A stretch of 24,000 nt of DNA, taken from assembly GCF_963550625.1 (NCBI RefSeq), contig NZ_CAUVCV010000005.1, positions 68,995 through 92,994 on the forward strand, read 5' to 3'. The notes below the pieces were generated by a model. That model was not told the origin of the DNA, made no database searches, and worked only from the letters and a program-made list of their open reading frames with translations. The position numbers and the translations under genes are program-made. The DNA is from an uncultured Solobacterium sp. (lineage in GTDB: Bacteria > Bacillota_I > Bacilli_A > Erysipelotrichales > Erysipelotrichaceae). Numbering within the stretch: the first letter of the stretch is position 1; each line of letters starts with the position of its first letter. This document shows positions 3,277-20,677 of this stretch, piece by piece.

Positions 3277-3323
3277 TTTTCCTCCTAGGCGAAACCCAAA
3301 AAAGCATATGAATATATGCTTGG

Positions 3324-3351: not shown

Positions 3352-3391
3352 CTTATTTTGAATATAACACAAAAAATTAATAAATTACAAA

Positions 3392-4141
3392 TTATTCAGA
3401 TTTAAAAGTTTCAAATCCGTATTCTGCTTTGTCACATGGCATATAGGATGTTGTGAATTCAACAATGCTTCCACTAGAGTCATGCCCAATATATTGAAGA
3501 TTGTAAATATAACTATCAGAGGTTATACCCATAATTTTAGTAATTGGGTGAAATGCTTTTTGAATTGTAAGTTTTTGTTCAAATGAAATTGGAAAGTGCT
3601 CTTTCTGTTTCATGTAATCATAAAGCGAGGCCTTTGAGAAATCATGACCTTGGATATCACTAAAATATTTGAATGGGAGATAGCAGTATTCAAGAGCAAT
3701 ACTTTCACTATCAATCTTACGCAAACGGTGTAAAGCATATATTTTCTCGCCATGTTTTAAATTAAGCTTCTTCTCAATGTATGTTTGATCCTGAATAATA
3801 CCTTCTTCTAAGATGTAATTTTTGAGAGTTAGACCATGTTTATTAATAAATGCACCAAGGCCAATACTCTTACCTGTAGAATGATCGTTCAAATACAAAA
3901 TTTTATTTGTGATTTTCTTTGTCACAAAAGTGCCATTATTTTTAACTCGGAATAAATAACCCTCATCAATTAAAGTATTGATTGCATGTTTAACCGTCAT
4001 ACGATTTATGTGATAGAGTGCAGACATTTCTCGTTCACTAGGAATCTTTTCTCCAGGTAAATATTCACCATCTTTAATACGCTGGATAATTAAGTTTTTT
4101 AACTGAATATATAAAGGAATTTGGTAGTTCATAATTATCAC
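3392..4141 (-). CDS. GntR-family transcriptional regulator, HutC subfamily (UTRA-type effector domain)
   Basis: Winged-helix signature EKIPSEREMSALYHINRMTVKHAINTLIDEGYLFRVKNNGTFV plus a ~170-aa C-terminal domain. GTG at 4139-4141 abuts the TAG stop (4142-4144) of the upstream paralog. ATG at 4132 (MNYQIPLY) is an alternative start. Confidence 0.85.
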   Translation of the reverse strand: MIIMNYQIPLYIQLKNLIIQRIKDGEYLPGEKIPSEREMSALYHINRMTVKHAINTLIDEGYLFRVKNNGTFVTKKITNKILYLNDHSTGKSIGLGAFINKHGLTLKNYILEEGIIQDQTYIEKKLNLKHGEKIYALHRLRKIDSESIALEYCYLPFKYFSDIQGHDFSKASLYDYMKQKEHFPISFEQKLTIQKAFHPITKIMGITSDSYIYNLQYIGHDSSGSIVEFTTSYMPCDKAEYGFETFKSE

Positions 4142-4846
4142 CTAAATTAACTCGAATGAGAAGCGATCATACTTCATATAACTTTCAGTAAAAGCAAGAA
4201 CATGGTTATGCTTGTCGAATATACATCCAGAAAGCAAGGCTACATTTGCGGTGTTAGAAAGTTCTAAAGAATCTCGATAACTGTTTTCCGCTTCAATGAC
4301 ACGGATACGCTGTGTTGTTCTATAGAATTCAAATTGAAATTTATCTATCAAAATGTCATTTAAATTTTCAATATCTTCTTTATAATTCACGAGTTCAGGG
4401 GCAAGATTCACAGGGATAAAACAATAGTCCATACATACCGGTTCATGGTCTGCGATTAATAATCGCTTTATTTCAAAAAACTTTGTTCCAAGTGGCAAAT
4501 TTGTTTCACGGCATAAATATTTATCGGCTTCGATTTCAACAAATTTAAATAGCTTTGTCTCATATGTTGAAACGTTATCTTTTATAATTTCTGACATTAA
4601 ACGAATAGAATTTACATTTTTTGAAATTCGTTGTTTTGCTACAAAATACCCAACTTTAGGTACAACATCAACAATTCCCATTTCTTCTAGAATTTTCATA
4701 GCCGAACGAAGGGTTAAACGCTGAATTGAAAAAAGATCACATAATTCGCGCTCGCTTGGGAGCTTGTCCTGATATTTTAAATGTTGATCAGCAATATATT
4801 GTCTTATTTCATTGCTTATCATAATATCCAATGTCATAACTTTCAT
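4142..4846 (-). CDS. GntR-family transcriptional regulator, HutC subfamily (second, divergent paralog)
   Basis: DKLPSERELCDLFSIQRLTLRSAMKILEEMGIVDVVPKVGYFV winged-helix signature plus a UTRA-sized C-terminal domain. No SD before ATG 4846. Confidence 0.85.
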   Translation of the reverse strand: MKVMTLDIMISNEIRQYIADQHLKYQDKLPSERELCDLFSIQRLTLRSAMKILEEMGIVDVVPKVGYFVAKQRISKNVNSIRLMSEIIKDNVSTYETKLFKFVEIEADKYLCRETNLPLGTKFFEIKRLLIADHEPVCMDYCFIPVNLAPELVNYKEDIENLNDILIDKFQFEFYRTTQRIRVIEAENSYRDSLELSNTANVALLSGCIFDKHNHVLAFTESYMKYDRFSFELI

Positions 4847-4900
4847 GCACTTATTTTAACAACTTTGTATATATTTAATCAAATACAATAATGTAAGGGG

Positions 4901-4928
4901 TTGCAAACCTATTATCAACTGGTATAAT
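4901..4928 (+). promoter_or_regulatory. extended -10 promoter of the permease/kinase/deglycase operon
   Basis: TTGCAA (4901-4906), 16-nt spacer ending in TGG, then TATAAT (4923-4928), giving TGnTATAAT. Confidence 0.55.
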
Positions 4929-4954
4929 AAAATTAAATAGTGGTATATATGTAA

Positions 4955-7160
<2,206 letters not shown>

Positions 7161-7161
<1 letters not shown>

Positions 7162-7940
7162 TGGCAGTTATCAGAATGACATTCTTCTCTACTGCTTTAA
7201 GGATGACAACAAACTGTAATATATTAATACCCGATAATTCAAATGATGTAACACCAATATGTAATGGTCAGTATAAAACCTTATATCTATTACATGGTTT
7301 ATCCGGTAATGCAGAGGAATGGATTCGGTTTACAAAACTGGAATATTATGCAAAGAAATTTGGCTATATCATTGTTATGCCTGAAGTAGGAAGAAGTTTT
7401 TATACAAATATAGATGGGATTAATTATGCAAAATATATTGCGGAAGAACTTCCTAATTATTTAAGTCAGTGGTTTAAAATTCCAACACAAAAAGAGTGTA
7501 CTTATATTGCTGGTGAAAGTATGGGTGGATATGGAGCATTGAAAATTGGATTTAGTTATCCAAAACAATACCAATCGATAGCGGCATTATCACCAGTAAT
7601 ACATTTAGAAGAACTACGTTGTATGGTTGAGAACAAAGTGTTCGAAGAAATGGGTGTTGATGAGATTGATAGAATCATTTCTCAAAATGATTACTTTGAT
7701 ATCTATAAATATCTTGATAACAAACCAAGTAAAGATTACCCTTCTGTTATTCAATTGTGTGGGACAGATGATTTCTTGGTTGATAGCAATCAAAAGTTCT
7801 ATCACTATGCAAAGAATAAGATAGATATTACTTATCGAGAGTTAAGTGGTGATCATGAGTGGCCTGTATGGGATATTGCAATACAGAAAGCTATACAATA
7901 TTTTGAAAAATATGACATTGATCATTTTCGGCTATATTGA
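7161..7940 (+). CDS. esterase D / EstA-type serine esterase (PF00756-like)
   Basis: YLLHGLSGNAEEW, nucleophile elbow GESMGGYGA, C-terminal GDHEW. The N-terminus MAVIRMTFFS resembles streptococcal EstA. ATG 7161 overlaps the kinase stop (TAATG). The track start TTG 7155 is less likely. Confidence 0.85.
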
Positions 7941-7958
7941 GAAACGGAGAGATTAGAT

Positions 7959-9020
7959 ATGATAACAACAGAATTATGGAAAGAAAACGAAGGTGCTAAT
8001 CTCCGTAACTTTCATGAAGAACAAGATTTAAAAAGTGTAAATGGTGCATTAGCTTTACGCAAAGATATTGAAAAGATTATTGATAAAATTTGGGATGAAG
8101 GATTTGATAATATTTTCTATATTGGTATTGGAGGGACATATGCGTCCGCAATGCAAGTTGAAGTATATATGCGCGGAAGAAGTAAATTGCCAGTATTTGT
8201 AGAAAATGCAGCAGAGTTTTTAACAACAGGGAATAAAAGATTTACAAATAAGTCTATAGCGATTCTATCTTCCGTATCTGGCAATACTTTAGAGATGATC
8301 GAACTAGTGGATAAGGTACATGAAATTGGTGGAAAGGTATTTAGTTTTATCGATACACCAAATACAATTCTTGCACAACCGGATAAACAAGATTATCTAA
8401 TTTTGTATCCAAAAAATGAACAACTAAAATTCTACATGACCGCAAATTACTTCATGTATAAAAACGGGGAATTTGCAGAATATGATGACTACAACCAAAA
8501 TATGGAAAACTATTTAGCAGAAGCATTGGTCAATGTAGAAAAGCAAGCAGATACATGGGCGTACCAGTATGCTATGCAGAAAGTTGAATTTTTAGATAAA
8601 CATCCAGATTTACCTCACTATTTTATAGGTGCAGGTAACCAATATGGTGCAACATATTCATATGCTATGTGCTATTGGGAGGAACAAATGTGGATACGAA
8701 CAAAATCTATAAGTTCTCCTGAATTTTTCCATGGTATGCAAGAAATAATAGTAAAAGATACACCAATTACCTTATTTATCGGTGAAGATGAACAAAGACC
8801 GTTATCCGAAAGGGTTGCACGATTCCTTCCACAAGTAAATTCAAATTACGTTATTATTGATACAAAAGAATTTGAATTAAGCGGAATCAAAAAAGAATAT
8901 CGTGGCAGCATATCCCATCTGGTTATGCATGCAGTAAATAATCGCGTTGATGCGTATATGGAAAAATTCCTAAGACATCCATTGAGTATAAGAAGATATT
9001 ATCGCCAGTTCGATTATTAA
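7959..9020 (+). CDS. frlB: SIS-domain fructosamine-6-phosphate deglycase-like protein
   Basis: 353 aa. Phosphosugar-binding loop IGIGGTYASA, PEFFHGMQEI (E..HG) block and a C-terminal RRYY motif, as in FrlB/FraB-type deglycases (recalled). GGAGAG RBS 7 nt upstream. Confidence 0.85.
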   Translation: MITTELWKENEGANLRNFHEEQDLKSVNGALALRKDIEKIIDKIWDEGFDNIFYIGIGGTYASAMQVEVYMRGRSKLPVFVENAAEFLTTGNKRFTNKSIAILSSVSGNTLEMIELVDKVHEIGGKVFSFIDTPNTILAQPDKQDYLILYPKNEQLKFYMTANYFMYKNGEFAEYDDYNQNMENYLAEALVNVEKQADTWAYQYAMQKVEFLDKHPDLPHYFIGAGNQYGATYSYAMCYWEEQMWIRTKSISSPEFFHGMQEIIVKDTPITLFIGEDEQRPLSERVARFLPQVNSNYVIIDTKEFELSGIKKEYRGSISHLVMHAVNNRVDAYMEKFLRHPLSIRRYYRQFDY

Positions 9021-9040
9021 TATAATTTTTGAGATTAACA

Positions 9041-9073
9041 ATAAATATTATCGGTTTAGCCGATAATATTTAT
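9041..9073 (+). promoter_or_regulatory. perfect 14-bp stem-loop inside the operon (attenuator, partial terminator or mRNA stabiliser)
   Basis: ATAAATATTATCGG-TTTAG-CCGATAATATTTAT, followed only by GTTTC (weak U-tract). Lies in the 121-nt gap between the deglycase and the next gene. Confidence 0.45.
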
Positions 9074-9141
9074 GTTTCATATCATATTTTTAATATACAG
9101 AGAAATATCAGCCTTCATAAAGAAAGATAGGAGAGAATTTT

Positions 9142-9954
9142 ATGAAATTTGGGTTATTTACGTGCGGATATCAAAGATTTGATATTGAAAAAGCATTTCA
9201 AGATGCGCAAAGATTTGGATATGACTATGTTGAATTATGGGGTGCAAGACCACATGCATATCCTTATGATCTTGAAATATGTGCAAATAGAATCAATGAA
9301 TTAATAAAAAAATACAACATGCCTGTAACTGTATATACACCAGAATTAAACGCGTATCCATTTAATTTGATGTGGGAAAATGAAAGCATGCGTGATAATT
9401 CTTTAGAATATGTTTATAAATCTTTGGATTTCGCAAAAGCCATTGGTGCAGAATATACTTTAATTTCGGCTGGACATGCTGGTTTTGAAGCTACTGAAGA
9501 AATAATAAAAGAACGTTTATATGATAGTTTGGAAAAGATAATAGCGTATGCAGAAAAAGTTGGCATAAAAATTGTGTATGAACCATTAACAATTTATGAA
9601 TCTAATGTAACAACTACGTCTAACCAACTACTGGAATTATGTAATCACTTTAATTCTCCTTATTTCTTTGCAATGAATGATATTGTTGTACCGTATATAC
9701 AAGGAGAAAATATCATTGAATTTAATAAGAAATTAGGTAGTAAATTAGTACATATGCATGTAGTTGATAGTGACGGGCAATCTGAAGATCATTACTGTCC
9801 AGGTTATGGTAATTTGCCGTTAACGAATTTCATGCAAGAACTCATAGATAGTGGGTATGATGAAACGGTTACAATTGAATTGGTAACAAAATATCTAAAT
9901 GAACCTAGTATTTACGCAAAACTAGCAATTAATAATTTAAAAGAAGGGCTGTAA
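9142..9954 (+). CDS. xylose-isomerase-like TIM-barrel sugar(-phosphate) epimerase/isomerase (FrlC-like or SgbU/UlaE-like)
   Basis: 270 aa. Blocks FTCGYQR, ELWGARPHAY, YEPL, HVVDSDG and TIELVTKYLNEP fit PF01261-type enzymes. Size and several blocks resemble fructoselysine 3-epimerase FrlC as recalled. AGGAGAG RBS. Confidence 0.8.
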   Translation: MKFGLFTCGYQRFDIEKAFQDAQRFGYDYVELWGARPHAYPYDLEICANRINELIKKYNMPVTVYTPELNAYPFNLMWENESMRDNSLEYVYKSLDFAKAIGAEYTLISAGHAGFEATEEIIKERLYDSLEKIIAYAEKVGIKIVYEPLTIYESNVTTTSNQLLELCNHFNSPYFFAMNDIVVPYIQGENIIEFNKKLGSKLVHMHVVDSDGQSEDHYCPGYGNLPLTNFMQELIDSGYDETVTIELVTKYLNEPSIYAKLAINNLKEGL

Positions 9955-9956
9955 AT

Positions 9957-10781
9957 ATGTGGATGAAAGATTTATGGCACAAAGATAAAGTCATTATAGG
10001 AACGCTGCATCTAGATGCATTGCCTGGAGATCCAAGATATTCTGCTAGTGATAGTCTAGATATAATTATTGAACATGCAAGAATGGATCTAAAATCGTTA
10101 ATTAATGGTGGCGTAGATGCCGTGTTAATATCAAATGAATTTAGTTTTCCATATCAAAGAAAAATGGACTATGTTACTGTTGCATGTATGGCAAGAATAA
10201 TTGGTGAAATAAAAAAAGATATTACAGTTCCTTTCGGAGTTGATGCAATATCTGATGGAGCCGCAACATTGGAACTTGCTAGAGCTGTAGATGCAGATTT
10301 TTGTAGAGGTACGTTCTCGGGTGTGTATGTTGGAGATGGTGGTTTATATAATAATGATATTTCCAAACTCTTAAGAAGAAAAACAGAATTGCATTTATCT
10401 AATTTAAAGATGCTTTATTTTATTAATCCAGAATCTGACAAGAATTTAGATACACGAGATTTAACTGAAATCGCAAAATCGACAGTATTCAAAACGGGAG
10501 CGGATGGATTATGTATATCTGCCAGTGCAGCAGGACAAGATGTTAATGAAGTTTTAATTCAATGTGTTAAAGATGCATGTCCAAGTGTTGCAGTGCTAGC
10601 GAATACAGGATGTAGACCTGAAACAATAGAATCCAAATTAAAGTATGCAGATGCTGCAGTTGTTGGAACATATTTTAAGACAGACGGTAAGTTACAAGAT
10701 AGTAATGGAAATAATGTAAGGGTAGATGTAAACCGAGTTAAAGAATTTATGGATGTAGTTAATCGATTCAGAAAGGAATAA
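9957..10781 (+). CDS. BtpA/SgcQ-family TIM-barrel protein, function unknown
   Basis: 274 aa. N-terminal IGTLHLDALPGDPRY matches the family hallmark (G-x-H-L-x-x-L-P-G-x-P). Starts 2 nt after the previous stop. Confidence 0.75.
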   Translation: MWMKDLWHKDKVIIGTLHLDALPGDPRYSASDSLDIIIEHARMDLKSLINGGVDAVLISNEFSFPYQRKMDYVTVACMARIIGEIKKDITVPFGVDAISDGAATLELARAVDADFCRGTFSGVYVGDGGLYNNDISKLLRRKTELHLSNLKMLYFINPESDKNLDTRDLTEIAKSTVFKTGADGLCISASAAGQDVNEVLIQCVKDACPSVAVLANTGCRPETIESKLKYADAAVVGTYFKTDGKLQDSNGNNVRVDVNRVKEFMDVVNRFRKE

Positions 10782-10788
10782 TAAGGTT

Positions 10789-12327
10789 ATGACATCAAAA
10801 TATTTTGTTGGAATTGATGTAGGAACAAATGAAACAAAGGGTATTTTGATTGATGAAAATGGACGTGAAGTTATATCAGCATATACAGCACATGGTATTG
10901 AGAATCCAAAACCAAATTATTTCGAGCATGATGCGGATGAAGTTTGGTATAAGGATGTTTGCATTATTGCTCAAAAACTAATAAAGCAATCGCAAGTTGA
11001 TCCTAAAGATATTAAGAGTATCGGAATTAGTGCACTGAGTTCAGATTGTCTACCTGTAGATATTGAAGGAAAACCATTACGCAAAGCAATTCTCTATGGA
11101 ATTGATGCACGTGCACTATCCGAATGTCAAGAATTAACCGAAAAATGGGGAAGAGATAAAGTGATTGAGCTTTTTGGCAGACCGTTAGGATCAAGTGATA
11201 TAGCCCCAAAAATTCTGTGGATAAAAAATAATGAGCCGGATGTGTATAGGAAAACACATAAGTTTTTAACGGCATCCTCTTACATAACTTTTAAACTAAC
11301 GGGAAATTATACGATCGATAACTTCTTAGGCCTAGCAAGTTTTAATCCTCTGTATAGACGTGATGGTTCAATTAATGAGCAATATGCAGAAGGAGTATGC
11401 TTGACGGGTCAACTTGCAGACCTTAAAAAGACTACAGATATAGCCGGGTATATTACAAAAGAAGCAGCAAAGGATACTGGGTTTGCAGAAGGAACAGCAG
11501 TAATCACTGGTGGAGATGATTCTGGAGCTGAGGCCATTAGTAGTGGCGTTATGACGCCCGGAGATATGTTAGTACAAATGGGTTCGACTGTGTATATGAT
11601 TTTATGTACGGATAAATTGTATGATGATAATCGCCTATGGCGGGAAGAGTTTATAGTCCCGAATACATATGATATATCTGCCGGAACAAATACATCAGGT
11701 GCTTTAACAAAATGGGTCAGAGATACTTTCTATCCGGATAAAGTTAAAGAACAAGAACAAGGTGGTATTAATGCATACCAAGCTATGATGGAGGATTTAA
11801 AAGAAATTCCTATTGGCAGTGGAGGGTTGGTTGTTTTACCTTATTTTGCAGGAGAGAGAACACCAATTAATGATGCGCATGCAAAAGGAATCATCTTTGG
11901 ATTGAATCTAGCACATACTCGAAAACATATTATGAGAGCAGCATATGAATCCGTATGTTATTCGATTAAACATCACTTTGAAATATTTAAGGAGTTAGGA
12001 ATTCCTATAAACCAGATTATGGTAACAGGTGGTGGCACAAAAAATGAAGTATGGATACAAATGTTATCTGATGTACTAGGAATCAAACTACAGACACCAT
12101 CTGTGACTATTGGCGCAAGTTATGGTGATGCGCTTATGGCAATGATAGGAGTAAATCATATTAAGGATTTTGCGGAAGCAAAAAAGCTAATTGAGACAGG
12201 CAAAGTATATTATCCAAATTTAGAGAACACAAAAAAATATGAACCTTATTATAAGATATACATTGAGCTATATAAAAAGAATAAGGAATTAATGTCTACG
12301 ATGGATGAAATAAATCAACTTGCCTAA
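10789..12327 (+). CDS. FGGY-family carbohydrate kinase (xylulokinase/L-xylulose kinase-like)
   Basis: 512 aa. N-terminal YFVGIDVGTNETKGILID phosphate-1 motif and C-terminal VTGGGTKNEVWIQMLSDVLG FGGY signature. Confidence 0.9.
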   Translation: MTSKYFVGIDVGTNETKGILIDENGREVISAYTAHGIENPKPNYFEHDADEVWYKDVCIIAQKLIKQSQVDPKDIKSIGISALSSDCLPVDIEGKPLRKAILYGIDARALSECQELTEKWGRDKVIELFGRPLGSSDIAPKILWIKNNEPDVYRKTHKFLTASSYITFKLTGNYTIDNFLGLASFNPLYRRDGSINEQYAEGVCLTGQLADLKKTTDIAGYITKEAAKDTGFAEGTAVITGGDDSGAEAISSGVMTPGDMLVQMGSTVYMILCTDKLYDDNRLWREEFIVPNTYDISAGTNTSGALTKWVRDTFYPDKVKEQEQGGINAYQAMMEDLKEIPIGSGGLVVLPYFAGERTPINDAHAKGIIFGLNLAHTRKHIMRAAYESVCYSIKHHFEIFKELGIPINQIMVTGGGTKNEVWIQMLSDVLGIKLQTPSVTIGASYGDALMAMIGVNHIKDFAEAKKLIETGKVYYPNLENTKKYEPYYKIYIELYKKNKELMSTMDEINQLA

Positions 12328-12359
12328 AAATCACACTTCTTATGAGGTGTGATTTTTTT
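12328..12359 (+). terminator. rho-independent terminator (copy T2 of the repeated hairpin)
   Basis: AAATCACACTTC-TTAT-GAGGTGTGATTT followed by T-run, starting at the first base after the kinase stop. Core identical to T1 (1702-1731). Confidence 0.8.
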
Positions 12360-12497
12360 AGGTCATGACACAGACCTAACTGGTAAAGTGTTTTTTCCGA
12401 AAAGTCAAATACCTAACTTGATTAAATGATAGAATATAAGAATATTGACATACTGTAAATCAGAATTGATTTACCAAAAATTGTGGAGGAACAGCAA

Positions 12498-13139
12498 ATG
12501 AAAAAACGTATTGCTTTATTAGTTTATCCTGATTTTAGCTTACAAGAAGTAACTAACCTGATGTATTTCTTTCGGTGGGCTTTTGATACTTTTACGGATG
12601 TTATATATACAGATCTATCTCCTGTTAGGAGTGAAGAAGGAATATTAGTGCAGCCAGTAAAAACGTGTACTAAGTTTTGTAAAGAGGATTATGATTGCTT
12701 GATTCTTCCGGGATGCAGTAATTTAACGCAACCTATACGGAATAAAAAAATAAGAGAGTTTTTAGAGTCATTCGCAAATGATAATACTTTTGTTATTGGC
12801 GCAATTTGTGCTGGTCCAGTATTCTTGGCGCAAGCAGGTTTATTGAAAAATAAAAAATATACTGCTTCGTTATATGCTGAAATGATGGAATTGTTTAGTT
12901 TTGTTGAAGAAGATAATTTCTTGCCACAATCGGTAGTAGAAGATGAAAATATAATCACTGCTGTAGGCAGTGCATTTAACGAGTTTGCAGTACATGTTGC
13001 TAGAAAACTTGGTTATGAATGCCCGGATAAAATATTAAGTGGTTATATGGATTCAGATGATGCTAATGACTATATTCATCATCTAACGGAAGAAGATTTA
13101 CTAGAATTTAAAAAGGAATTTAAAGAATTTATTGATTAA
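12498..13139 (+). CDS. DJ-1/PfpI-superfamily protein (DJ-1-like nucleophile elbow) with acidic C-terminal extension
   Basis: KKRIALLVYPDFSLQEV start and AICAGPVFLAQAG cysteine elbow. GGAGGA at 12485-12490 is 7 nt before ATG 12498, which I prefer over the track start GTG 12483. Confidence 0.8.
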   Translation: MKKRIALLVYPDFSLQEVTNLMYFFRWAFDTFTDVIYTDLSPVRSEEGILVQPVKTCTKFCKEDYDCLILPGCSNLTQPIRNKKIREFLESFANDNTFVIGAICAGPVFLAQAGLLKNKKYTASLYAEMMELFSFVEEDNFLPQSVVEDENIITAVGSAFNEFAVHVARKLGYECPDKILSGYMDSDDANDYIHHLTEEDLLEFKKEFKEFID

Positions 13140-13192
13140 AAGTATGAATGATTATCAGATTTATTATTTCTGTTTATCAAAATATAACTGTT

Positions 13193-13223
13193 AAATCACA
13201 CCTCATGAGAAGTGTGATTTTTT
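13193..13223. repeat. copy T3 of the repeated hairpin, inverted relative to T1/T2; probable terminator
   Basis: AAATCACACCTC-ATGA-GAAGTGTGATTT plus T-run. Its reverse complement differs from T2 by one loop base. On the + strand RNA the stem carries a C-A mismatch. Confidence 0.6.
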
Positions 13224-13250
13224 GCGTCTTCTCTTTAGGTCGTAAAAATA

Positions 13251-13281
13251 TGTATCTTACATTGTAAATTATGCATCTTAG
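13251..13281 (+). promoter_or_regulatory. direct repeat pair, candidate LytTR binding site
   Basis: TGTATCTTA (13251-13259) and TGCATCTTA (13272-13280), 8/9 identical with a 21-bp period. They lie upstream of possible -35/-10 elements GAGACA (13292-13297) and TAATAT (13315-13320). Confidence 0.35.
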
Positions 13282-13353
13282 CGAAAATGGCGAGACAGTA
13301 TGAAATACTTGCGGTAATATCACATTAGAAAAGATACGAAGGGAGAATCGAAG

Positions 13354-13788
13354 ATGAAAGTGAATGTAGAACTATCAAAAGAATTTTCTCCTCCACATGT
13401 AACGATTTATGCGGATGCGATTACGGATGAAGTTCAGAGAGTGATTGATGTACTAGACTCTAAGGATATACCACTGATAGTGCAGAGCGAAGATCGGATG
13501 GTAGTCTTGAAAGCGGAAGAGATATATATGATACGTGTGGAGGGTGGAGACACTGTTATCTATACTGAAAACGAGAGGTATTATTCCCGAAAACGTTTGT
13601 ATGAGATGTTTGAGCAGATCGGGACTGGCTTTATGCAAATATCGAAACAAACTGTTATTAATCTTTCTTGTATAAAAAGTATAGAGACAGGCTTTGGTGG
13701 GACATTATTACTAAAGTTAAAGAATGGTTCTTCTGATTATGTATCAAGAAAGTATCTACCTGATCTAAAAAGATATCTAGGAATTTAA
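13354..13788 (+). CDS. stand-alone LytTR-domain transcriptional regulator (no receiver domain)
   Basis: 144 aa. The C-terminal ~100 aa (IYMIRVEGGDTVIYTENERYYSRKRLYEMFEQIGTGFMQISKQTVINL...SRKY) fit the LytTR DNA-binding domain. AAGGGAG RBS. Confidence 0.85.
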   Translation: MKVNVELSKEFSPPHVTIYADAITDEVQRVIDVLDSKDIPLIVQSEDRMVVLKAEEIYMIRVEGGDTVIYTENERYYSRKRLYEMFEQIGTGFMQISKQTVINLSCIKSIETGFGGTLLLKLKNGSSDYVSRKYLPDLKRYLGI

Positions 13789-13799
13789 GGAGGCAAAAC

Positions 13800-14240
13800 A
13801 TGAAAACAAAGAAACAAACACTGCTATTTAACATATTCATATCAATGGGTATTGCCGCAATGATGTTTATTATCGTTGGAGTTATTATTGATTGTATCTT
13901 CCATGGAAATATGGAGATGACAAATTACGCATTTTCTAAGATGGCTATCGCAACCGTGGTAATTGGACTTGGCTTTGGGATACCTGCAATAGTTTATGAC
14001 AATGAGAAGTTATCACTTTTTACACAGACAATTATTCATATGGGAACGGGTTGTATTGTTATGACTGTTACTGCGTATCTTGTGGGTTGGATTCCTATGA
14101 ATCATGGGCCACTACTAATGATTGCGATACTCGTAGAAGAGATTGCCGTTGCATTTGTTATTTGGTTTCTATTTTATCTACAACAGAAGAAACTGGTAAA
14201 ACAGATGAATCAACGAGTGAAAGAAATAAATAATGAATAG
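13800..14240 (+). CDS. small four-TM membrane protein (DUF3021-like partner of LytTR regulators)
   Basis: 146 aa with four hydrophobic segments and a basic C-terminal tail. AAGGAGG RBS overlaps the LytTR stop, with an 11-nt gap between genes. Confidence 0.7.
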   Translation: MKTKKQTLLFNIFISMGIAAMMFIIVGVIIDCIFHGNMEMTNYAFSKMAIATVVIGLGFGIPAIVYDNEKLSLFTQTIIHMGTGCIVMTVTAYLVGWIPMNHGPLLMIAILVEEIAVAFVIWFLFYLQQKKLVKQMNQRVKEINNE

Positions 14241-14242
14241 TT

Positions 14243-14276
14243 TAACGGTCTATCATAAGTAGGCCGTTATTTTTTA
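14243..14276 (+). terminator. rho-independent terminator
   Basis: TAACGGTCTA-TCATAAG-TAGGCCGTTA followed by TTTTTT. Confidence 0.7.
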
Positions 14277-14339
14277 GTTTGGGATGATAAATTATAATTT
14301 ACGTATTAAGATAGAGAGGTGCTTTTAAGGAGATTTATT

Positions 14340-15923
14340 ATGAAGTGGTATGAGAATGCGGTGTTCTATCATATTTATCCATTAGGATTAACGGATGCAC
14401 CGAAGAATAATGATTATCAAATTACAGAACATCGTTTGAATCAATTGGGTCCTTGGATTAAACATATCAAGGAAATTGGCTGTAATGCACTATATATTGG
14501 ACCATTATTTGAATCGGTTGGACATGGATATGAAACAACCGATTACTATAAGTTGGATTCTAGACTTGGGGATAATGAGGATTTAAAGAAGTTTGTGAAA
14601 GAATGCCATCATCAAGGTATTCACGTAATCTTTGATGGTGTCTTTAATCATACGGGAAGAGAATTCTTTGCGTTTAAGGATATTCAACAGAATCGTGAAA
14701 GCTCTCAGTATAGAGATTGGTATTGTAATGTGAATTTCCAGGGGAATAATGAATATAATGATGGCTTTTCCTATGATAACTGGGGTGGCTATAACTTACT
14801 TGTAAAACTCAATCAACAAAATCCAGCGGTAAGACAATACCTGTTGGATGTGGTGAAATATTGGGTAAGTGAGTTTGATGTGGATGGTATTCGACTAGAT
14901 GCGGCAGATGTATTAGACTTTGGCTTTATGCATGAGTTACGTATGCTGGCGAATGAAATCAAGCCTGAATTCTGGTTGATGGGGGAAGTGATTCATGGCG
15001 ACTATAGTCGTTGGGTAAATCCTGATATGTTACATTCTGTGACAAACTATCAATTATATAAAGCGTTATATTCTGGACATAATGAACATAACTATTTTGA
15101 GATTGCCCATACAGTGCGTTATCTATTAGATAAAGGTAATCTGCCATATCATCTTTATAACTTTGTGGATAATCATGATGTGGAACGTATTTATACAAGA
15201 CTACTCAATAAACAGGAATTTGTACCAGTACATATTTTGATGTATACACTACCGGGTATCCCTTCTATTTATTATGGTAGTGAGTTTGGCATTGAAGGAA
15301 GAAAAGAGAAACATTCCGATGCAGTTTTACGTCCTGCAATTAGCTTGGAAGATTATCCAAATGCAGTAAATGAGAATGGCTGTACCAATATTATCGCAAG
15401 ACTTGGAAAAATTCGACAGAAGAATCCAGTATTTACAGATGGAATTTACCACGAACTACGACTAACAAATCGTCAGTATGCTTTCTCACGTACAAATGAG
15501 ATAACACACGCAATCGTTGTGGTGAATAACGATGAAGCGGATTCATCACTAGAAATCCCAGCAAATGGAACTTATACAGAGCTACTGAGTGGAGAAGTTC
15601 AGTCTGTTGAAGGAAGTCTACACGTTCAATTGCAAGCATGTTCAGGACAAATCTGGATGAAAGACTATGATGAAACAGTAACTAGGAAAAGAGAAGTTAA
15701 GATTCCGGAAGTCAAGCAAGTTGCAGTAAAAGAGGAAGCAATCAAGCAGGCAACTGTCGATCATAGTAAATCTTATGAAGAGATGAGTGTTGAAGAACTA
15801 CAAGCATGTGTTCTAGAAAAACTTGCAAAGAATGGCCCTGTAACAGAACAAATGAAACGTGATGTCGCAAATAATGTTTATCATGATTCATTGGTTAACT
15901 GGGTAAAGAGCTTTAGAAATTAA
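14340..15923 (+). CDS. cytoplasmic GH13 alpha-amylase-family glycosidase with a non-catalytic C-terminal extension
   Basis: GH13 conserved regions DGVFNH, GIRLDAADV, WLMGEVIHG and FVDNHDVER. No signal peptide. AAGGAG RBS 7 nt before ATG 14340 (MKWYEN), which I prefer over the track start at 14319. Confidence 0.9.
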   Translation: MKWYENAVFYHIYPLGLTDAPKNNDYQITEHRLNQLGPWIKHIKEIGCNALYIGPLFESVGHGYETTDYYKLDSRLGDNEDLKKFVKECHHQGIHVIFDGVFNHTGREFFAFKDIQQNRESSQYRDWYCNVNFQGNNEYNDGFSYDNWGGYNLLVKLNQQNPAVRQYLLDVVKYWVSEFDVDGIRLDAADVLDFGFMHELRMLANEIKPEFWLMGEVIHGDYSRWVNPDMLHSVTNYQLYKALYSGHNEHNYFEIAHTVRYLLDKGNLPYHLYNFVDNHDVERIYTRLLNKQEFVPVHILMYTLPGIPSIYYGSEFGIEGRKEKHSDAVLRPAISLEDYPNAVNENGCTNIIARLGKIRQKNPVFTDGIYHELRLTNRQYAFSRTNEITHAIVVVNNDEADSSLEIPANGTYTELLSGEVQSVEGSLHVQLQACSGQIWMKDYDETVTRKREVKIPEVKQVAVKEEAIKQATVDHSKSYEEMSVEELQACVLEKLAKNGPVTEQMKRDVANNVYHDSLVNWVKSFRN

Positions 15924-15947
15924 AAATACCGCAGCTGCGGTATTTTT
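15924..15947. terminator. bidirectional terminator
   Basis: AAAATACCGCAGCTGCGGTATTTT, a perfect palindrome with A/T-runs on both sides, between convergent genes. Confidence 0.8.
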
Positions 15948-15952
15948 AATAT

Positions 15953-16609
15953 TTAGGCTTTACGTTCATGCATTAGAATAAATGGAATCAATAGAACAGC
16001 ACAAGAAATCCAGATGGTTGGATAACCTAACTGTTTGGATATTACACCACCAAGACCAGCACCAATTGCGAATATTACGATAATTCCAAAGTAATGCATG
16101 GATTGGTGAAAGTATGTTTTATCATTTGTACGAAAGAAAGCAGATAATCTTGCGGTAGCACTCTTGATATTACCGATACACATGGTACTAGCATATGTGT
16201 TTCCGTTAACCTTACGGAAAGATTGTACTTGTAAGGCGCAAGAGAATGAAACAAGCATATTTGCGATGTTGTTAAGATTACCAGGAATAAAACCCACGAT
16301 AAATAATGTAATGATTTCAATCAAAATGATATATTGTCTCCAGTGAAGAGAGTGCTTTTCTTTTAGTCTTCCCTGTAGTTGTTCTGCAACGAATACACCA
16401 ACAATAAAGGCAAAGATTGGTAAAAGGTAATTTAAGCTATGACCTAGATTTCCTTCCATCAAGTTCTGTGTCATTAAGACGAGATTGCCTGTTTGTGCAT
16501 TCGCAAAAACACGATTTCGTGTATTAAATGTATAGGCATCCTGCAAGCCTCCACTAAAAGCGAGGAAGGCAGAAGTGATAAATGCGTCTGACATCTGTTG
16601 TTCTTTCAT
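15953..16609 (-). CDS. YoaK/DUF1275-family membrane protein
   Basis: 218 aa, multi-TM. FSGGLQDAYTF and ANAQTGNLVL (TGN motif) are typical of DUF1275. Confidence 0.8.
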   Translation of the reverse strand: MKEQQMSDAFITSAFLAFSGGLQDAYTFNTRNRVFANAQTGNLVLMTQNLMEGNLGHSLNYLLPIFAFIVGVFVAEQLQGRLKEKHSLHWRQYIILIEIITLFIVGFIPGNLNNIANMLVSFSCALQVQSFRKVNGNTYASTMCIGNIKSATARLSAFFRTNDKTYFHQSMHYFGIIVIFAIGAGLGGVISKQLGYPTIWISCAVLLIPFILMHERKA

Positions 16610-16685
16610 AGTTCACCATCCTTCAAACTATTTCTAGAAAGTTCAGTCTAATATTAGGATGAATTGTAAATGAATACAAGACTAG

Positions 16686-16862
16686 TCAATAGAATGTAAA
16701 GGATACCATGTAAGAAAATATTCTGACATTAATTACGAAAATATGGGGAATGCTAAGTATCTAAAACTAGATCAATTAAAATGGAATAAAGATGGTAATC
16801 CAGTAGAGATAACTTTTGGATATCAAGACTACATTATTACAATTGCAAATCAAAATGAGTGA
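16686..16862 (+). pseudogene. possible 3' remnant of a degraded gene
   Basis: 58-codon open frame ending ...YLKLDQLKWNKDGNPVEITFGYQDYIITIANQNE*. It has no convincing RBS. The L-x-W-x-x-DG-x-P ending resembles C-termini of some glycoside hydrolases. It sits in an unusually long 362-nt intergenic region. Confidence 0.25.
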
Positions 16863-16971
16863 TAAATCCTAATAATGGCTAAGCGTGTAGCTTAGGATAT
16901 GGTTACTATTGTAGGTAATCTGTCAATATAATACAATTTGTTGTATAAATAAATTCATTAAGAGATATATT

Positions 16972-17778
16972 ATGTATGATGCAAAAAATAGTCAAATTAA
17001 ATTTTACGATGACACAATCAATTATGTTTCATTTGGTTATGGAAACAAGAATTTATTATTGATACCAGGTTTGAATACCGAGCGAATAAAAGGAAAAGCT
17101 TTACAACTTGCTTTTTTCTATAGAAATTTTTTGAGAGAATATAAAGTTTTTATATTTGACCATAAAGAACATATCAATGAGAATTATGAGATAAGTGATA
17201 TGGTGGAAGAAATTGCTTATTGTATAAAAAAGTTGAATATAGATAAAGTAGATGTTGTAGGGGTATCTCAAGGGGGGATGATTGCACAACTATTAGCTAT
17301 AAATTACCCTGATATTGTTGACAAACTAGTATTAGTGGCAACTACATCAAGAAATAATCCTACAACAAACAAGGTCATAGATAGATGGATTGTTCTAGCT
17401 GAAAATGGTAAGTTACAAGAACTGCAAAAAAATATGATTGAAACGGTTTATTCAAAAGGATATATAGCAAAAAATAAGTGGTTATCTATATTAGTACAAA
17501 TTCTAACTAAGCCAAAATCAGATCAACTTAATAGATTTATTATTTTAGCTAAATCATGCTTAAAATTTGATGTTTTTGATAAATTAGATAAAATTCAATC
17601 TAAAACTCTGGTTATAGGTGCTGCATTAGATCAAGTTATACCAGTAAAATTTTCTAATGAACTTGCTGAAAAAATGAATTGTCAGAAAATTATTTTTGAA
17701 AACTCTGGTCATGCAGTACATCAAGAAGTTTCTGATTTTAATAGAATAGTTTTAAATTTTTTGAGAAATAGTAATTAA
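16972..17778 (+). CDS. alpha/beta-fold hydrolase
   Basis: 268 aa. Nucleophile elbow GVSQGG and C-terminal SGHAVHQE histidine block. Visibly more AT-rich than its neighbours, with a weak RBS. Confidence 0.8.
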   Translation: MYDAKNSQIKFYDDTINYVSFGYGNKNLLLIPGLNTERIKGKALQLAFFYRNFLREYKVFIFDHKEHINENYEISDMVEEIAYCIKKLNIDKVDVVGVSQGGMIAQLLAINYPDIVDKLVLVATTSRNNPTTNKVIDRWIVLAENGKLQELQKNMIETVYSKGYIAKNKWLSILVQILTKPKSDQLNRFIILAKSCLKFDVFDKLDKIQSKTLVIGAALDQVIPVKFSNELAEKMNCQKIIFENSGHAVHQEVSDFNRIVLNFLRNSN

Positions 17779-17889
17779 GAATTTAACTTTTCACTTGCAC
17801 ATAGCTTAGCATTCACTAACCCTTTGAGGGAGGTATATTGAAAACTGTACTTTTAACCATTAAAATAGAAAGGCAGGAGGTAAACACGA

Positions 17890-19965
17890 ATGCTAAATAA
17901 ATTACCAGAAAAATTAACACTTCTACGAAAACATTACGGTCTTTCACAGGGTGATGTAGCAACAAAAATCAGTGTAAAGTTTACCGATTATATGAACTGG
18001 GAAAATGGCAATAGTATCCCATCAATATCAAATATTCGTAAGTTATCTATGTTGTTTGGTGTTCCGGTTGAATCTTTTATTGATAACAGAAAGGTAATTG
18101 AGTTACCTGAGATAAAGGTAGTACCACCAGTACAACCAGAGTCAAGACCAGAACCAGAACAAAAACTAGATGAAACATTAAAAACAAGTACAATTCATAC
18201 ACAAAGAGTTAATTCTGTTAAGAATGACTTAGGAAGTACACGTGTCATGGATGCAGGAAAGATTAAGACAGCCGCAAAGGCAGCAGATACAAATCAACCG
18301 AAGAAACAAGATACTCAAAACAATCGCAAGAAGATTTCTTATGCGATTATCGCCGGATGCTTGGTTGCGGTTATCGCAGTTGTAGCACTTATCTTACGTA
18401 TGACAACAGGTGGCGGTAAATCAAACTTTACTGTAGAAACTTCTGAACTAAACTGTATCGCAGAAGGTGATACCTATACATTATTTATTAATAAGAATAA
18501 TGCCTTAGAAGTTTATGGTGATTTCCAGTATAAGAATGAATTCCAGGATGTTGTACAAGTCAGTGCTTATGGAAGTCATGCGGTAGGCCTTAAGAAAGAT
18601 GGTACAGTCGTAACGACCGATAAGAATGAGGAAGTTACGAAATGGAAGAACATTAAGGCGATTGCGGCTGGAAAAGACCATACAGTTGGTTTAACAAGTG
18701 ATGGTAAAGTTCTTTGTGCAGGTAGTGAACTTGCGTGTCAAGTCAGTGATTGGACAGATGTAGAGAGCGTCTACGCTGGTGATGATGCGACATTTGCGAT
18801 TGTAAATGGACAGGTGAAAGTATCAGGTAACTCTGCAAACTTCAGTACAATTAGTGACGCAAAGAAGTTGGCTGTTGGTGATTCACAAGTACTTGTATTA
18901 AAGAAAGATGGTAGTGTAGCTGCTGTATCCTTAAAGGGAAACAGTACAAGTGATGTATCTAGCTGGGCTAAGATCGCATCCATTGCTGTAGGAAAAAACT
19001 ATGTCGTTGGTGTACATGAAGATGGCACAGTCAGTGTTGTCTCAGATGATAAAGATTTAAAGGAAACAGTCGAAGCTTGGACAGATGTAAAATATATCGC
19101 AGCGTATGATGATACACTCGTTGCCTTCAATCGCTCTGGTAAGATGTATGGTTATGGAGATAACTCCAGTAGCCAATACGATAATTCATTTAAGGCAGAT
19201 GCAAAACAACTATCACAAGTGAAGAATATTACATTCACAGTCACAACAGCGAATGTAAATATTGCGTGGGATCCAGTTGAAAATGCAGATTACTATGAAT
19301 TAACAATTAACACGAATCCAATTACAGAACATAAGAATATTATTTCAAATAGTGATAGTATCGCATCCTCATCCCTCAAGGATGGAGAGACATACGTCGT
19401 AACAATCACAGCACATTCCAAGAAGGAAGATAAGTATAAGACAAGTGAGAAGACTTCGATTAACTTTGCATATAGTGCAAAGACAGTACAGCTCAACTCA
19501 CCAACAGATATTACAGCGAATGGGTTACAGAATGCTTGGCATTTTGCTTGGTCAGCAGTAGAGAATGCAGATAAGTATAATATCTCAATTGATGGAACGG
19601 TTGCGGCATCTAATGTTGAAGGAACATCCATTACGATTGACGGTATCTCATTTGCGGAAGGCTCTGAACATGAAATTAGTATTACAGCTCTATCATCGAA
19701 CCCTGCATACACTGAAAGTGTACCAACAAAGGCTAAGATGAAGTATACTATCAGCAAAGGTAAGATTAAGGTTAATCTTGAAAAACCAGATGGTAGCAGT
19801 GCCGGTTCAAAGACATATGAGCTCAATGTAGGTTCGTACTATATTCAAAATATTATCAAACCTAGTGATATCCCAAGTGGATTCAAACTGTCAACTGAAC
19901 CTGTTCAAGCTGAAGTTATGAATGGGCAAACAACAGAAGTAACGATTAAATTAGAAGCAAACTAA
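17890..19965 (+). CDS. membrane-tethered XRE-family HTH protein with extracellular RCC1-like beta-propeller, two FN3-like modules and a C-terminal beta-sandwich-like domain
   Basis: aa 7-63: Cro/C1 HTH (LRKHYGLSQGDVATKISV...WENG...P). aa 149-171: single TM (ISYAIIAGCLVAVIAVVALILRM). aa ~187-430: seven 35-40-aa repeats (AYGSHAVGLKKDGTVVT, AAGKDHTVGLTSDGKVLCAG, AVGDSQVLVLKKDGSVAAV, AVGKNYVVGVHEDGTVSVV and others). aa 443-528 and 535-619: modules sharing W-x-x-VENAD-x-Y. GGAGG RBS. Confidence 0.85.
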   Translation: MLNKLPEKLTLLRKHYGLSQGDVATKISVKFTDYMNWENGNSIPSISNIRKLSMLFGVPVESFIDNRKVIELPEIKVVPPVQPESRPEPEQKLDETLKTSTIHTQRVNSVKNDLGSTRVMDAGKIKTAAKAADTNQPKKQDTQNNRKKISYAIIAGCLVAVIAVVALILRMTTGGGKSNFTVETSELNCIAEGDTYTLFINKNNALEVYGDFQYKNEFQDVVQVSAYGSHAVGLKKDGTVVTTDKNEEVTKWKNIKAIAAGKDHTVGLTSDGKVLCAGSELACQVSDWTDVESVYAGDDATFAIVNGQVKVSGNSANFSTISDAKKLAVGDSQVLVLKKDGSVAAVSLKGNSTSDVSSWAKIASIAVGKNYVVGVHEDGTVSVVSDDKDLKETVEAWTDVKYIAAYDDTLVAFNRSGKMYGYGDNSSSQYDNSFKADAKQLSQVKNITFTVTTANVNIAWDPVENADYYELTINTNPITEHKNIISNSDSIASSSLKDGETYVVTITAHSKKEDKYKTSEKTSINFAYSAKTVQLNSPTDITANGLQNAWHFAWSAVENADKYNISIDGTVAASNVEGTSITIDGISFAEGSEHEISITALSSNPAYTESVPTKAKMKYTISKGKIKVNLEKPDGSSAGSKTYELNVGSYYIQNIIKPSDIPSGFKLSTEPVQAEVMNGQTTEVTIKLEAN

Positions 19966-19981
19966 GTGCAAGGAGAAACAC

Positions 19982-20188
19982 ATGGACAGACTTTGGTATT
20001 ATACAAAACGAGGTAGCACAGAAAAATTTGGCCCATTTACAGATGCGGAATTAGTGCAGTTCATCAAACAAGAAATTCTTTGCAAGGATGACTATATCTG
20101 GATGCCAGATTTGAAGAGTTGGTTAGAAATATCAAATTCAATCTATGCAATCTACTTGCCGGCTTCAGATACAACAGTAGAAATATAA
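19982..20188 (+). CDS. small GYF_2 (DUF4339)-like domain protein
   Basis: 68 aa. WYYTKRGSTEKFGPFTDAELVQFIKQEIL..DDYIWMPDLKSWLEIS fits the W-Y-Y..G...GP.....L......G.I.....W..G...W pattern. AAGGAGA RBS 5 nt upstream. Starts 16 nt after the previous stop. Confidence 0.7.
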   Translation: MDRLWYYTKRGSTEKFGPFTDAELVQFIKQEILCKDDYIWMPDLKSWLEISNSIYAIYLPASDTTVEI

Positions 20189-20190
20189 AG

Positions 20191-20233
20191 AAAAGAATGT
20201 ATTTGTAGGAAAGCCCTATAAATACATTCTTTT
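20191..20233. terminator. bidirectional terminator
   Basis: AAAAGAATGTATTT and AAATACATTCTTTT form a 14-bp stem with a 15-nt loop, between convergent genes. Confidence 0.6.
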
Positions 20234-20245
20234 TGTATACATGCA

Positions 20246-20677
20246 TTATTTTCTACGAATGCTTTGAAGTGTTGTTGTACCAATGATTGTACCAAGACTA
20301 AGTGCGACAAGAGATAGAATACAATCAAATGCTTGTACTTCTGCTAGTCGGATATTGCCAGTTACTAGTGATGCGATCATATAGTGGAACATGTCTCCAG
20401 GAATCAATGGAATAATGGATGGGTAGATAAAGTAAGCAGTAGGAACCTGAAGCTTACGAGACATAAATTCACCGTAAAGCGAAGCAGCAAGTGCAGAAAT
20501 TAAAATGATGACAAAGCGATTATCCAGAAAACTAGAAAGTGAGATATTTACTAAGCGCACTAAGAATCCACCAAGACCTGCATATAGTAATTTATCTTTG
20601 CCATGAATCCCAAAGGTAACACTAAAAGCTAGTGAAGCAATAAAGGAAAATAGTAGAATCAATATGTTGTTTACCAT
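20246..20677 (-). CDS. threonine/serine exporter family protein, small subunit (ThrE_2/DUF3815, YjjB-like)
   Basis: 143 aa, four to five TM segments. Overlaps the upstream ThrE-type gene by 7 nt. Confidence 0.7.
   Translation of the reverse strand: MVNNILILLFSFIASLAFSVTFGIHGKDKLLYAGLGGFLVRLVNISLSSFLDNRFVIILISALAASLYGEFMSRKLQVPTAYFIYPSIIPLIPGDMFHYMIASLVTGNIRLAEVQAFDCILSLVALSLGTIIGTTTLQSIRRK

Follow-up and report, generated by a model that had tools for sequence, protein, structure and literature searches.

Transmembrane transcription regulators (TTRs) form a recognised and widespread class of proteins, most of which cross the membrane once and most of which are based on helix-turn-helix (HTH) domains (PMC10269533). 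We describe here a gene pair of this general layout from an uncultured Solobacterium sp. of the Erysipelotrichaceae, located in a 24,000-nucleotide stretch of contig NZ_CAUVCV010000005.1 (positions 68,995 to 92,994), which we call the window and to which the coordinates given below refer; both genes lie on its plus strand. The first gene (17890-19965) encodes a protein of 691 amino acids with an HTH domain, a transmembrane (TM) helix, a seven-bladed propeller and fibronectin type III (FN3) modules, and the second (19982-20188) encodes a soluble GYF_2 (DUF4339) mini-protein of 68 amino acids; both open reading frames (ORFs), 16 nt apart, are as given in a preliminary description of the locus. 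As in ToxR, CadC and TcpP, an N-terminal DNA-binding-type domain, a flexible linker, a single TM helix and an extracytoplasmic part in the place of a sensor lie on one polypeptide and, to judge from the sequence, the large protein joins a recognised DNA-binding-type domain to a TM helix that is predicted to leave this domain in the cytoplasm. The likeness to ToxR-type regulators that had been drawn previously is one of architecture, however, as the DNA-binding domain of ToxR belongs to another fold family: ToxR and CadC have an OmpR-type winged helix, whereas the domain here is of the XRE/Cro-C1 type, which is also found in the transmembrane regulator BcrR. Moreover, the sensor is here a BLIP-II-type propeller followed by an FN3 arm, and the co-component, which in ToxS and VtrC is anchored in the membrane and periplasmic, is here a soluble cytosolic GYF protein. 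The reading that we tentatively prefer, while stopping short of calling it probable, is that the large protein works as a TTR, its HTH being gated by a cytosolic GYF adaptor that docks on a motif in the linker.

For the small protein, the system to compare is GltJ (AgmX) of Myxococcus xanthus, which contains the sole bacterial GYF domain characterised so far. This domain is cytosolic, binds a proline-rich sequence of AglZ through a β-sheet face (as established by isothermal titration calorimetry and nuclear magnetic resonance) and is part of a membrane scaffold that recruits cytosolic partners (PMC11135422). The most conserved residues of prokaryotic GYF domains lie on that same β-sheet face, and in bacteria such domains are usually either attached to receptor-like membrane proteins, facing the cytosol, or encoded in the same operon (PMC11135422). 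The remark in the preliminary description that no described function is known for the pairing with a free GYF_2 domain has to be brought up to date in the light of this work, in which a cytosolic GYF adaptor that binds a proline-rich sequence is characterised and GYF genes are noted beside receptor-like membrane proteins. As in GltJ and other bacterial ZnR-GYF proteins, a cytosolic GYF domain that lacks the eponymous G-Y-F residues is associated here with a single-pass receptor-like protein that has an extracytoplasmic domain and, in the cytosol, a long linker without order (PMC11135422), and the model of the mini-protein superposes on the GltJ GYF structure (7z3c) with a query TM-score of 0.70. 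In GltJ, on the other hand, the GYF domain forms the N-terminus of the receptor, whereas here it is a separate protein whose gene follows that of the receptor; a ZnR domain is absent, the receptor has an HTH, and the organism is a non-motile Gram-positive bacterium without the Agl-Glt system.

The ectodomain and the membrane-tethered HTH have described counterparts as well. BLIP-II of Streptomyces exfoliatus has seven blades of three strands each and about 35-40 amino acids per blade, as does the propeller described here, but BLIP-II is a free secreted protein, whereas the present propeller is membrane-anchored, fused to an HTH, FN3 modules and a tip domain, and only 23% identical in sequence. 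The plant kinases CRINKLY4 and ACR4 are single-pass receptors with seven repeats of about 39 amino acids that have been modelled as a BLIP-II/RCC1-like propeller with three-stranded blades, and CRINKLY4 shows that a propeller of this type can serve as a receptor ectodomain (PMC4617170). These kinases differ in being eukaryotic, in having a kinase as output and in carrying Cys pairs in every repeat where the family described here has one invariant pair (C276/C283), and we claim no homology beyond the superfamily. Finally, RodZ, the other protein with which the locus had been compared, likewise has an N-terminal cytoplasmic HTH of the XRE superfamily, a basic juxtamembrane segment, a single TM helix and an extracytoplasmic C-terminus, and is a core housekeeping gene product; it binds MreB by way of helix 4 of its HTH. 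The linker of the present protein is much longer than that of RodZ, however, its ectodomain is unrelated, and the RodZ-defining HTH_25 and DUF4115 domains are missing.

The HTH domain occupies amino acids 1-70 of the large protein (17890-18099) and is of the Cro/C1 type, as had been proposed from the sequence: over amino acids 7-61 it matches the Pfam families HTH_19 (35.3 bits, cutoff 30.2, E 1e-8) and HTH_3 (32.6 bits, cutoff 23, E 8e-8), and HTH_3 is matched by all 59 family members. The AlphaFold2 model of the large protein, built on an alignment of 59 homologues (mean pLDDT 82.7, above 90 for amino acids 1-70 and 185-691), shows the domain as five helices with pLDDT >90, and P6, K8, L9, R13, K14 and the run W37-E38-N39-G40 are invariant. 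Profile comparison with the Protein Data Bank (PDB) retrieved DdrO (1.6e-7), the XRE regulator 6jq1, Pli0006, ImmR of ICEBs1, SinR, PezA, HipB and the 434 repressor, the nearest solved relatives being DdrO, the XRE regulator, ImmR and SinR. A RodZ chain was absent from the 56 PDB profile hits obtained at E <= 1, and HTH_25 and DUF4115 had no match in the window protein at E <= 1 and none among the top families matched by the 59 members; on these profiles we reject the reading of the large protein as a RodZ. Trans_reg_C, the profile of the OmpR-type winged helix, was likewise unmatched in the window protein and the family.

With amino acids 1-95 as query, a phmmer (HMMER) search that was exhaustive over 1.84 billion representative proteins gave N-terminal matches with a single HTH in the HTH-propeller family only. 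All ten matches of atypical length that were scanned against Pfam carry RCC1_2, which indicates that HTH, TM helix and propeller are the invariant core of the family. The same search also drew a set of very large proteins with tandem XRE-type HTH domains (P0241, P0244, P0268 and P0259; 1002 amino acids with 11 matched stretches, 4162 with 16, 2873 with 17 and 2332 with 8), an odd architecture that is unrelated to the HTH-propeller pair.

The small protein is a genuine GYF domain. It matches Pfam GYF_2 with 36.7 bits (cutoff 25.8), in agreement with the preliminary description, and its homologues carry PF14237 under the NCBI name DUF4339. AlphaFold2 models it with a pLDDT of 87 as a GYF fold (β-β-α-β-β) for which Foldseek returned CD2BP2, GIGYF1/2, peptide-bound Smy2 and Myxococcus GltJ (query TM-scores 0.60-0.70, probabilities 0.91-1.0, E 0.008-0.2). 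The invariant residues W5, Y7, G17, P18, W40 and W47 lie on modelled strands, and the 68 amino acids contain no hydrophobic segment or signal peptide. The gene is found directly 3' of the large gene and on the same strand in 74 of 74 evaluable loci (those whose sequence continues past the large gene), even where the large protein is only 29% identical, which answers the earlier suggestion that conservation of the pair should be checked. In these loci the GYF_2 ORFs are 60-80 amino acids long and follow the large gene at a gap of no more than 41 nt or, often, overlap it by 1, 4 or 8 nt; such constant adjacency with frequent overlap fits a stoichiometric partner. A search with the GYF_2 profile gave 210 clusters, all of 59-88 amino acids, and every source-named cluster came from the same clade.

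The linker that joins the HTH to the membrane is disordered in the AlphaFold2 model (residues 76-157) and measures about 80 amino acids in the window protein and 80-130 in the family, a tether long enough that a membrane-bound HTH could reach the nucleoid. The Pro/Glu-rich linker of the preliminary description is present in the window protein, but the run is restricted to the window's own clade, where it replaces a short Pro motif that is conserved instead. Specifically, two prolines shortly behind the HTH are kept in at least 80% of orthologues (DNtk....P.......sv.IPF), and the motif [ST][ILVA]x[ILVM]P[FSYL] occurs in the linker of 52 of 73 orthologues. The corresponding Pro-containing segment of the window protein comprises amino acids 72-91, LPEIKVVPPVQPESRPEPEQ (18103-18162), and by analogy with GltJ we infer that GYF_2 docks here. 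A second conserved motif, G-x-T-[RK]-V-[MI], reads GSTRVM at amino acids 115-120 (18232-18249), some 30 amino acids before the TM helix, and its T117 is nearly invariant amid a disordered linker that is otherwise variable.

The large protein is predicted to span the membrane once, with its N-terminus inside and its C-terminus outside. The TM helix at amino acids 149-171 (18334-18402), preceded by a basic juxtamembrane cluster, is the sole hydrophobic stretch of the protein (Kyte-Doolittle 2.95) and coincides with the one proposed earlier, while AlphaFold2 places a helix at amino acids 158-172. Five K/R residues lie in the 15 residues before the helix and one after it, which under the positive-inside rule predicts a cytoplasmic N-terminus, and KKK-type clusters precede the helix across orthologues. 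The protein has no signal peptide, its N-terminus being the HTH itself.

Beyond the membrane, the first domain is a seven-bladed propeller of the BLIP-II/RCC1 superfamily at amino acids 186-432 (18445-19185), where RCC1_2 matches the window protein with 67.6 bits (cutoff 22) and is matched by 59 of 59 family members. The seven repeats seen from the sequence correspond to seven groups of three strands in the model (pLDDT >90), such that the number of blades stands as first described, but the blades have three strands, as in BLIP-II, and not the four of RCC1. The repeat pattern itself recurs as stated, except that the spacing after A-x-G is x4 and not x3 (IAAGKDHTVGLTSDGKV). Foldseek placed BLIP-II (3qhy_B, 1jtd_B) at the top of its matches to the propeller (E 4.6e-15, 249 of 271 residues, 23% identity, target TM-score 0.65), ahead of the UVR8, RCC1 and HERC propellers, and BLIP-II is also the best PDB sequence match (phmmer, E 0.007). 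On this model, the membrane-proximal propeller is of the BLIP-II type, with three strands per blade. An invariant pair of cysteines, C276/C283 (VLCAGSELACQVSDW; 18715-18738), lies at the junction of blades 3 and 4 of this extracellular domain in organisms that are obligate anaerobes, and may form a disulfide or serve to bind a metal or a ligand.

The propeller is followed by two FN3 modules, as had been anticipated from a shared W-x-x-VENAD-x-Y motif, which is found once per module at amino acids 460 and 554. For the first module (amino acids 443-528, 19216-19473), the Pfam fn3 match in the window protein (amino acids 442-523) falls just below the cutoff (24.0 bits, cutoff 25), while 52 of 59 family members match fn3 with a best E of 2e-12; the second (amino acids 537-619, 19498-19746) is recognised by the shared motif and its modelled fold. 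Both are β-sandwiches in the model, with Foldseek matches to FN3 tandems, and the FN3 assignment is secure at the level of the family. An antisense ORF of 177 amino acids (19293-19826, minus strand) lies wholly within the FN3-coding part of the large gene and is most likely a shadow ORF without significance. The protein ends in the β-rich domain of the preliminary description (amino acids 621-691, 19750-19962), a tip that is confidently modelled, is the fastest-evolving part of the protein and has no Pfam match in the scans of the window protein and the family. This distal arm is modular among relatives, with zero to three FN3 modules and Pro/Thr-rich linkers or tails, and one relative has a near-threshold MucBP match at the position of the tip. 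Divergence climbs outward along the unit: the HTH and GYF_2 are equally its most conserved parts (mean pairwise distance 0.45 each), followed by the propeller (0.58), FN3 (0.61) and the tip (0.80).

The two genes form an autonomous bicistronic unit with its own conserved promoter and terminator. A sigma-70-type promoter (TTGAAA, 17 nt, TAAAAT; 17838-17866) with 10 of 12 matches is the top promoter-like site of the region, and strong ribosome-binding sites (RBSs) can be read before the large gene (AGGAGG, 17875-17880) and, as already noted in the preliminary description, before the GYF_2 gene (AAGGAG, 19970-19975). In an anchored alignment of the loci, the GGAGG of the first RBS is conserved. 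Of 46 non-redundant orthologous loci, 33 have the promoter element gTTGAAAa-17-tTAAAATA 19-27 nt 5' of the ATG, often directly 3' of the terminator of the upstream gene, and its recurrence in most loci whatever the neighbours argues for an autonomous unit. One intrinsic terminator, consisting of a hairpin and a T-run (20190-20239), closes both genes as previously suggested and is common to the pair and the convergent ThrE-family exporter genes. Its hairpin (20190-20234; 20-bp stem, -23.9 kcal/mol, z = -7.8, with 0 of 200 shuffles folding as well) sits between the stop of GYF_2 (20188) and that of the convergent ORF 20246-20677, and was revealed by direct folding, a consensus terminator scan having found none in the region. 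The element is strong and AT-rich with T-runs on both strands, and is probably a bidirectional terminator.

A total of 435 homologues of the large protein were found, many of them full-length at 35-42% identity and with the same set of Pfam domains; the closest named homologue is from Solobacterium moorei (90%), and other clusters reach 95-98%. A scan of species-representative genomes returned 94 relatives and 80 loci. The carriers, which are commensals of mouth, gut and rumen, all belong to the Solobacterium/Bulleidia/Lactimicrobium/Galactobacillus part of the Erysipelotrichaceae, a few otherwise-named bins excepted. These exceptions, labelled Lachnospiraceae, Bifidobacteriaceae, Duodenibacillus and Eubacterium (L013, L016, L019, L025, L039 and L065), carry the locus at 37-41% identity, and such contigs labelled outside the Erysipelotrichaceae are probably mis-binned or mislabelled. 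The scan gave a single locus for each assembly, except for the metagenome-assembled genome JAFUCL01, in which two contigs (L070 and L071) each bear a copy of the large gene for 843 amino acids together with GYF_2, either as a true duplication or through redundancy of the assembly.

Among the more distant members, the pair stands in the order yvcK, whiA, GNAT, gap, pair, cysS, mrnC, rlmB, a sigH-like gene and nusG. In the window, gap (encoding glyceraldehyde-3-phosphate dehydrogenase) lies at 653-1684, and the roughly 16 kb between it and the pair hold metabolic genes and look like an insertion in the S. moorei lineage. The pair is a vertically inherited core feature of one subclade of the Erysipelotrichaceae and not a mobile island. 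The intervening genes (within 653-17778) include two tandem GntR/UTRA regulators, an amino-acid permease, PfkB and FGGY kinases, SIS, BtpA and DJ-1 proteins, an alpha-amylase, a DUF1275 protein and an alpha/beta hydrolase. Another pairing of a regulator with a membrane partner is found in the same region, where a gene for a LytTR DNA-binding protein (13354-13788) is followed on the same strand by one for a DUF3021 membrane protein (13800-14240).

We hypothesize that the large protein acts as a single-pass regulator, N-terminus in and C-terminus out, whose XRE-type HTH would bind DNA from the cytoplasm while the disordered linker, with its short conserved motifs, tethers it to the one TM helix. 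The membrane-proximal BLIP-II-type propeller would be the conserved ligand-binding part, with a protein or a wall-derived molecule as ligand, and the variable arm of FN3 modules, Pro/Thr-rich linkers and β-rich tip would project into or through the wall. The co-expressed, cytosolic GYF_2 protein would bind the Pro-containing motif after the HTH via its conserved aromatic β-sheet face and could gate or assemble the HTH (e.g. by dimerising or masking it), such that ligand binding by the ectodomain would alter transcription from the membrane. In this scheme, we infer that the HTH binds DNA and that GYF contacts the linker, and likewise what kind of signal is sensed (protein or cell-wall component) and that there are target genes. 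It is favoured because the HTH profile is closest to DNA-binding repressors while RodZ is absent, and because architecture and topology fit those of a recognised class, HTH-bearing single-pass transmembrane regulators being widespread. The adaptor role is suggested by the true GYF fold of GYF_2 and its match to GltJ, by the conserved Pro motif of the linker, with which residue 16 of GYF_2 covaries, by the position of the invariant GYF_2 residues on modelled strands and by the joint conservation of HTH and GYF_2. Lastly, a ligand-binding ectodomain is suggested by the resemblance of the propeller to BLIP-II, which binds proteins, and by the precedent of CRINKLY4. Of the two possibilities left by the preliminary description, a sensor and regulator or a surface scaffold, the former is better supported in view of the HTH profile and the want of any RodZ match. 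The other features on which that description hung, a TM helix of the expected orientation, repeats that model as a propeller and a syntenic GYF_2 gene, were all found, and no homologue with a defined role came to light.

Several results weigh against transcriptional control by an adaptor-gated HTH. The recognition-helix segment reads PVTEYMNWENG in consensus and KFTDYMNWENG in the window protein; the helix itself begins with Val or Phe, and Asp or Glu comes after, neither of which is a typical polar or basic base-contacting residue; these atypical residues leave room for a protein-binding HTH. An alignment logo of 33 promoters anchored on the -10 element displays only the -35, -10 and Shine-Dalgarno elements, with no conserved dyad or operator at the promoter of the pair, and when 57 kb of intergenic sequence drawn from 46 non-redundant loci was searched exhaustively for 5-nt dyads (spacers of 0-10 nt), no dyad occurred in more than 4 loci, where shuffled sequences gave 3-5. 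The promoter has a constitutive look, and none of the adjacent genes, which are housekeeping ones (e.g. gap and cysS), is a conserved target. Mirror-tree analysis of 73 pairs shows no preference of GYF_2 for the cytoplasmic part of its partner but says little either way, the partial correlations of GYF_2 distances being all small and similar (HTH 0.18, propeller 0.19, FN3 0.24, tip -0.02). The covariation of residue 16, which lies on strand β2 and is Phe in 15 of 21 orthologues without the linker Pro motif and in 2 of 52 with it (Fisher 4e-9), is suggestive, though this Tyr/Phe comparison is uncorrected for phylogeny and the Phe cases come from about 3-4 lineages. The near invariance of the HTH across the family nevertheless implies that something conserved constrains it, which could be an operator at some other genomic site or else a partner protein, GYF_2 for example.

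A protein partner is what would be expected if the pair formed a non-transcriptional envelope scaffold akin to RodZ or GltJ. The HTH would then bind a protein, GYF_2 and the linker would recruit cytosolic partners (cytoskeletal or of cell-wall synthesis) and the propeller would engage an extracytoplasmic enzyme such as a penicillin-binding protein (PBP), coordinating machinery inside and outside without regulation of genes. We consider such a scaffold unlikely, yet a contender of some weight: the pair is core, single-copy and vertically inherited, it has a constitutive-looking promoter at which no operator was found, its HTH and GYF_2 are co-conserved, its ancestral neighbours are housekeeping genes, with yvcK and whiA upstream, the one bacterial GYF domain characterised to date serves a membrane scaffold that recruits cytosolic partners (PMC11135422) and BLIP-II binds a PBP-like fold, that of class A beta-lactamase. 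The HTH profile, however, fits DNA-binding repressors and not RodZ, and the absence of HTH_25 and DUF4115 holds throughout the 59 members, while the link to yvcK-whiA is loosened by the intervening GNAT and gap genes, an upstream terminator and the pair's own promoter, and is lost altogether in the window's lineage. The arm and tip of the ectodomain would also suit a surface adhesin or wall-associated binder of host or microbial ligands in oral and gut biofilms, for which the HTH and GYF_2 would be minor or autoregulatory. The modular arm of typical Gram-positive surface elements (FN3 in zero to three copies, Pro/Thr-rich linkers, near-threshold MucBP), the rise in divergence from 0.58 to 0.61 to 0.80 towards the tip and the life of the carriers in mouth, gut and rumen all speak for this idea. 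Yet it is the cytoplasmic HTH and GYF_2, and not the ectodomain, that are most conserved; the constant co-occurrence of HTH and propeller and the strict retention of GYF_2 argue that the cytoplasmic side is central to function, and no autoregulatory operator was detected at the promoter, all of which makes a primary role in adhesion improbable.

The HTH itself invites two further explanations. It could belong to a latent factor, such that a signal at the ectodomain triggers cleavage of the linker or TM helix and frees the HTH with or without GYF_2. DdrO and ImmR, the closest solved relatives of the HTH, are repressors controlled by cognate proteases, and the short motifs conserved in the long disordered linker might be recognised by a protease or an adaptor. 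Proteolytic release nonetheless seems quite improbable, as none of the lineages has a protease gene linked to the pair, the sequence holds no evidence of a cleavage site and membrane-retained regulators are common, so that release is not required (PMC10269533). Context effectively rules out the last reading, in which the XRE regulator and its small partner would belong to a mobile element, a toxin-antitoxin pair or an anti-phage system. While the HTH alone matches phage RstR, the HigA, HipB and MqsA antitoxins, RmrA and control proteins of PADLOC and repressors of PHROGs, all of these matches are sub-threshold, cover only amino acids ~5-70 and stay below curated cutoffs (e.g. RstR, 41 against 80 in NCBIfam). 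GYF_2 is unmatched in PADLOC and PHROGs, the large protein has a TM helix and a 520-amino-acid ectodomain, and the locus is inherited vertically on a housekeeping backbone with no mobile-element genes.

The adaptor-gated transmembrane regulator can be taken one step further, into a speculative and rather unlikely but specific scheme: the GYF adaptor would read a short linear motif in the disordered tether, and this contact, switched by a ligand at the BLIP-II-type propeller, would determine if the HTH binds DNA. Possible ligands are a PBP, some other enzyme of the beta-lactamase fold or a wall fragment. If true, this would give the clade a dedicated link from the state of the cell wall to transcription without phosphorylation or proteolysis, following a eukaryote-like logic. 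Each component and the general architecture are of kinds already known, with GYF adaptors beside receptors and HTH transmembrane regulators both present in the literature. Literature on the function of GYF_2, DUF4339 or PF14237 in bacteria, or on RCC1_2 combined with a helix-turn-helix, yielded nothing specific, and the searchable literature has no description of a protein that combines an XRE HTH with a membrane-proximal BLIP-II-type propeller and is invariably encoded together with a free GYF mini-protein. Homologues bear generic names only.

To our knowledge, TTRs are numerous but only a handful are understood mechanistically, all of them Gram-negative and of the ToxR type. The HTH-propeller family offers a Gram-positive, XRE-type example of the TTR architecture, with an obligatory small cytosolic partner whose pairing is without exception over 74 loci. 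It also provides a second tractable context for bacterial GYF domains, beside GltJ, and a membrane-anchored relative of BLIP-II, a protein whose native biological role remains unclear. Both proteins consist of small domains that lend themselves to work with soluble fragments, making tests of binding and DNA footprinting straightforward, and their carriers are common in the human oral and gut microbiota and in the ruminant gut. Should the adaptor-motif mechanism prove true, it would represent a simple new way to gate a membrane-bound transcription factor.

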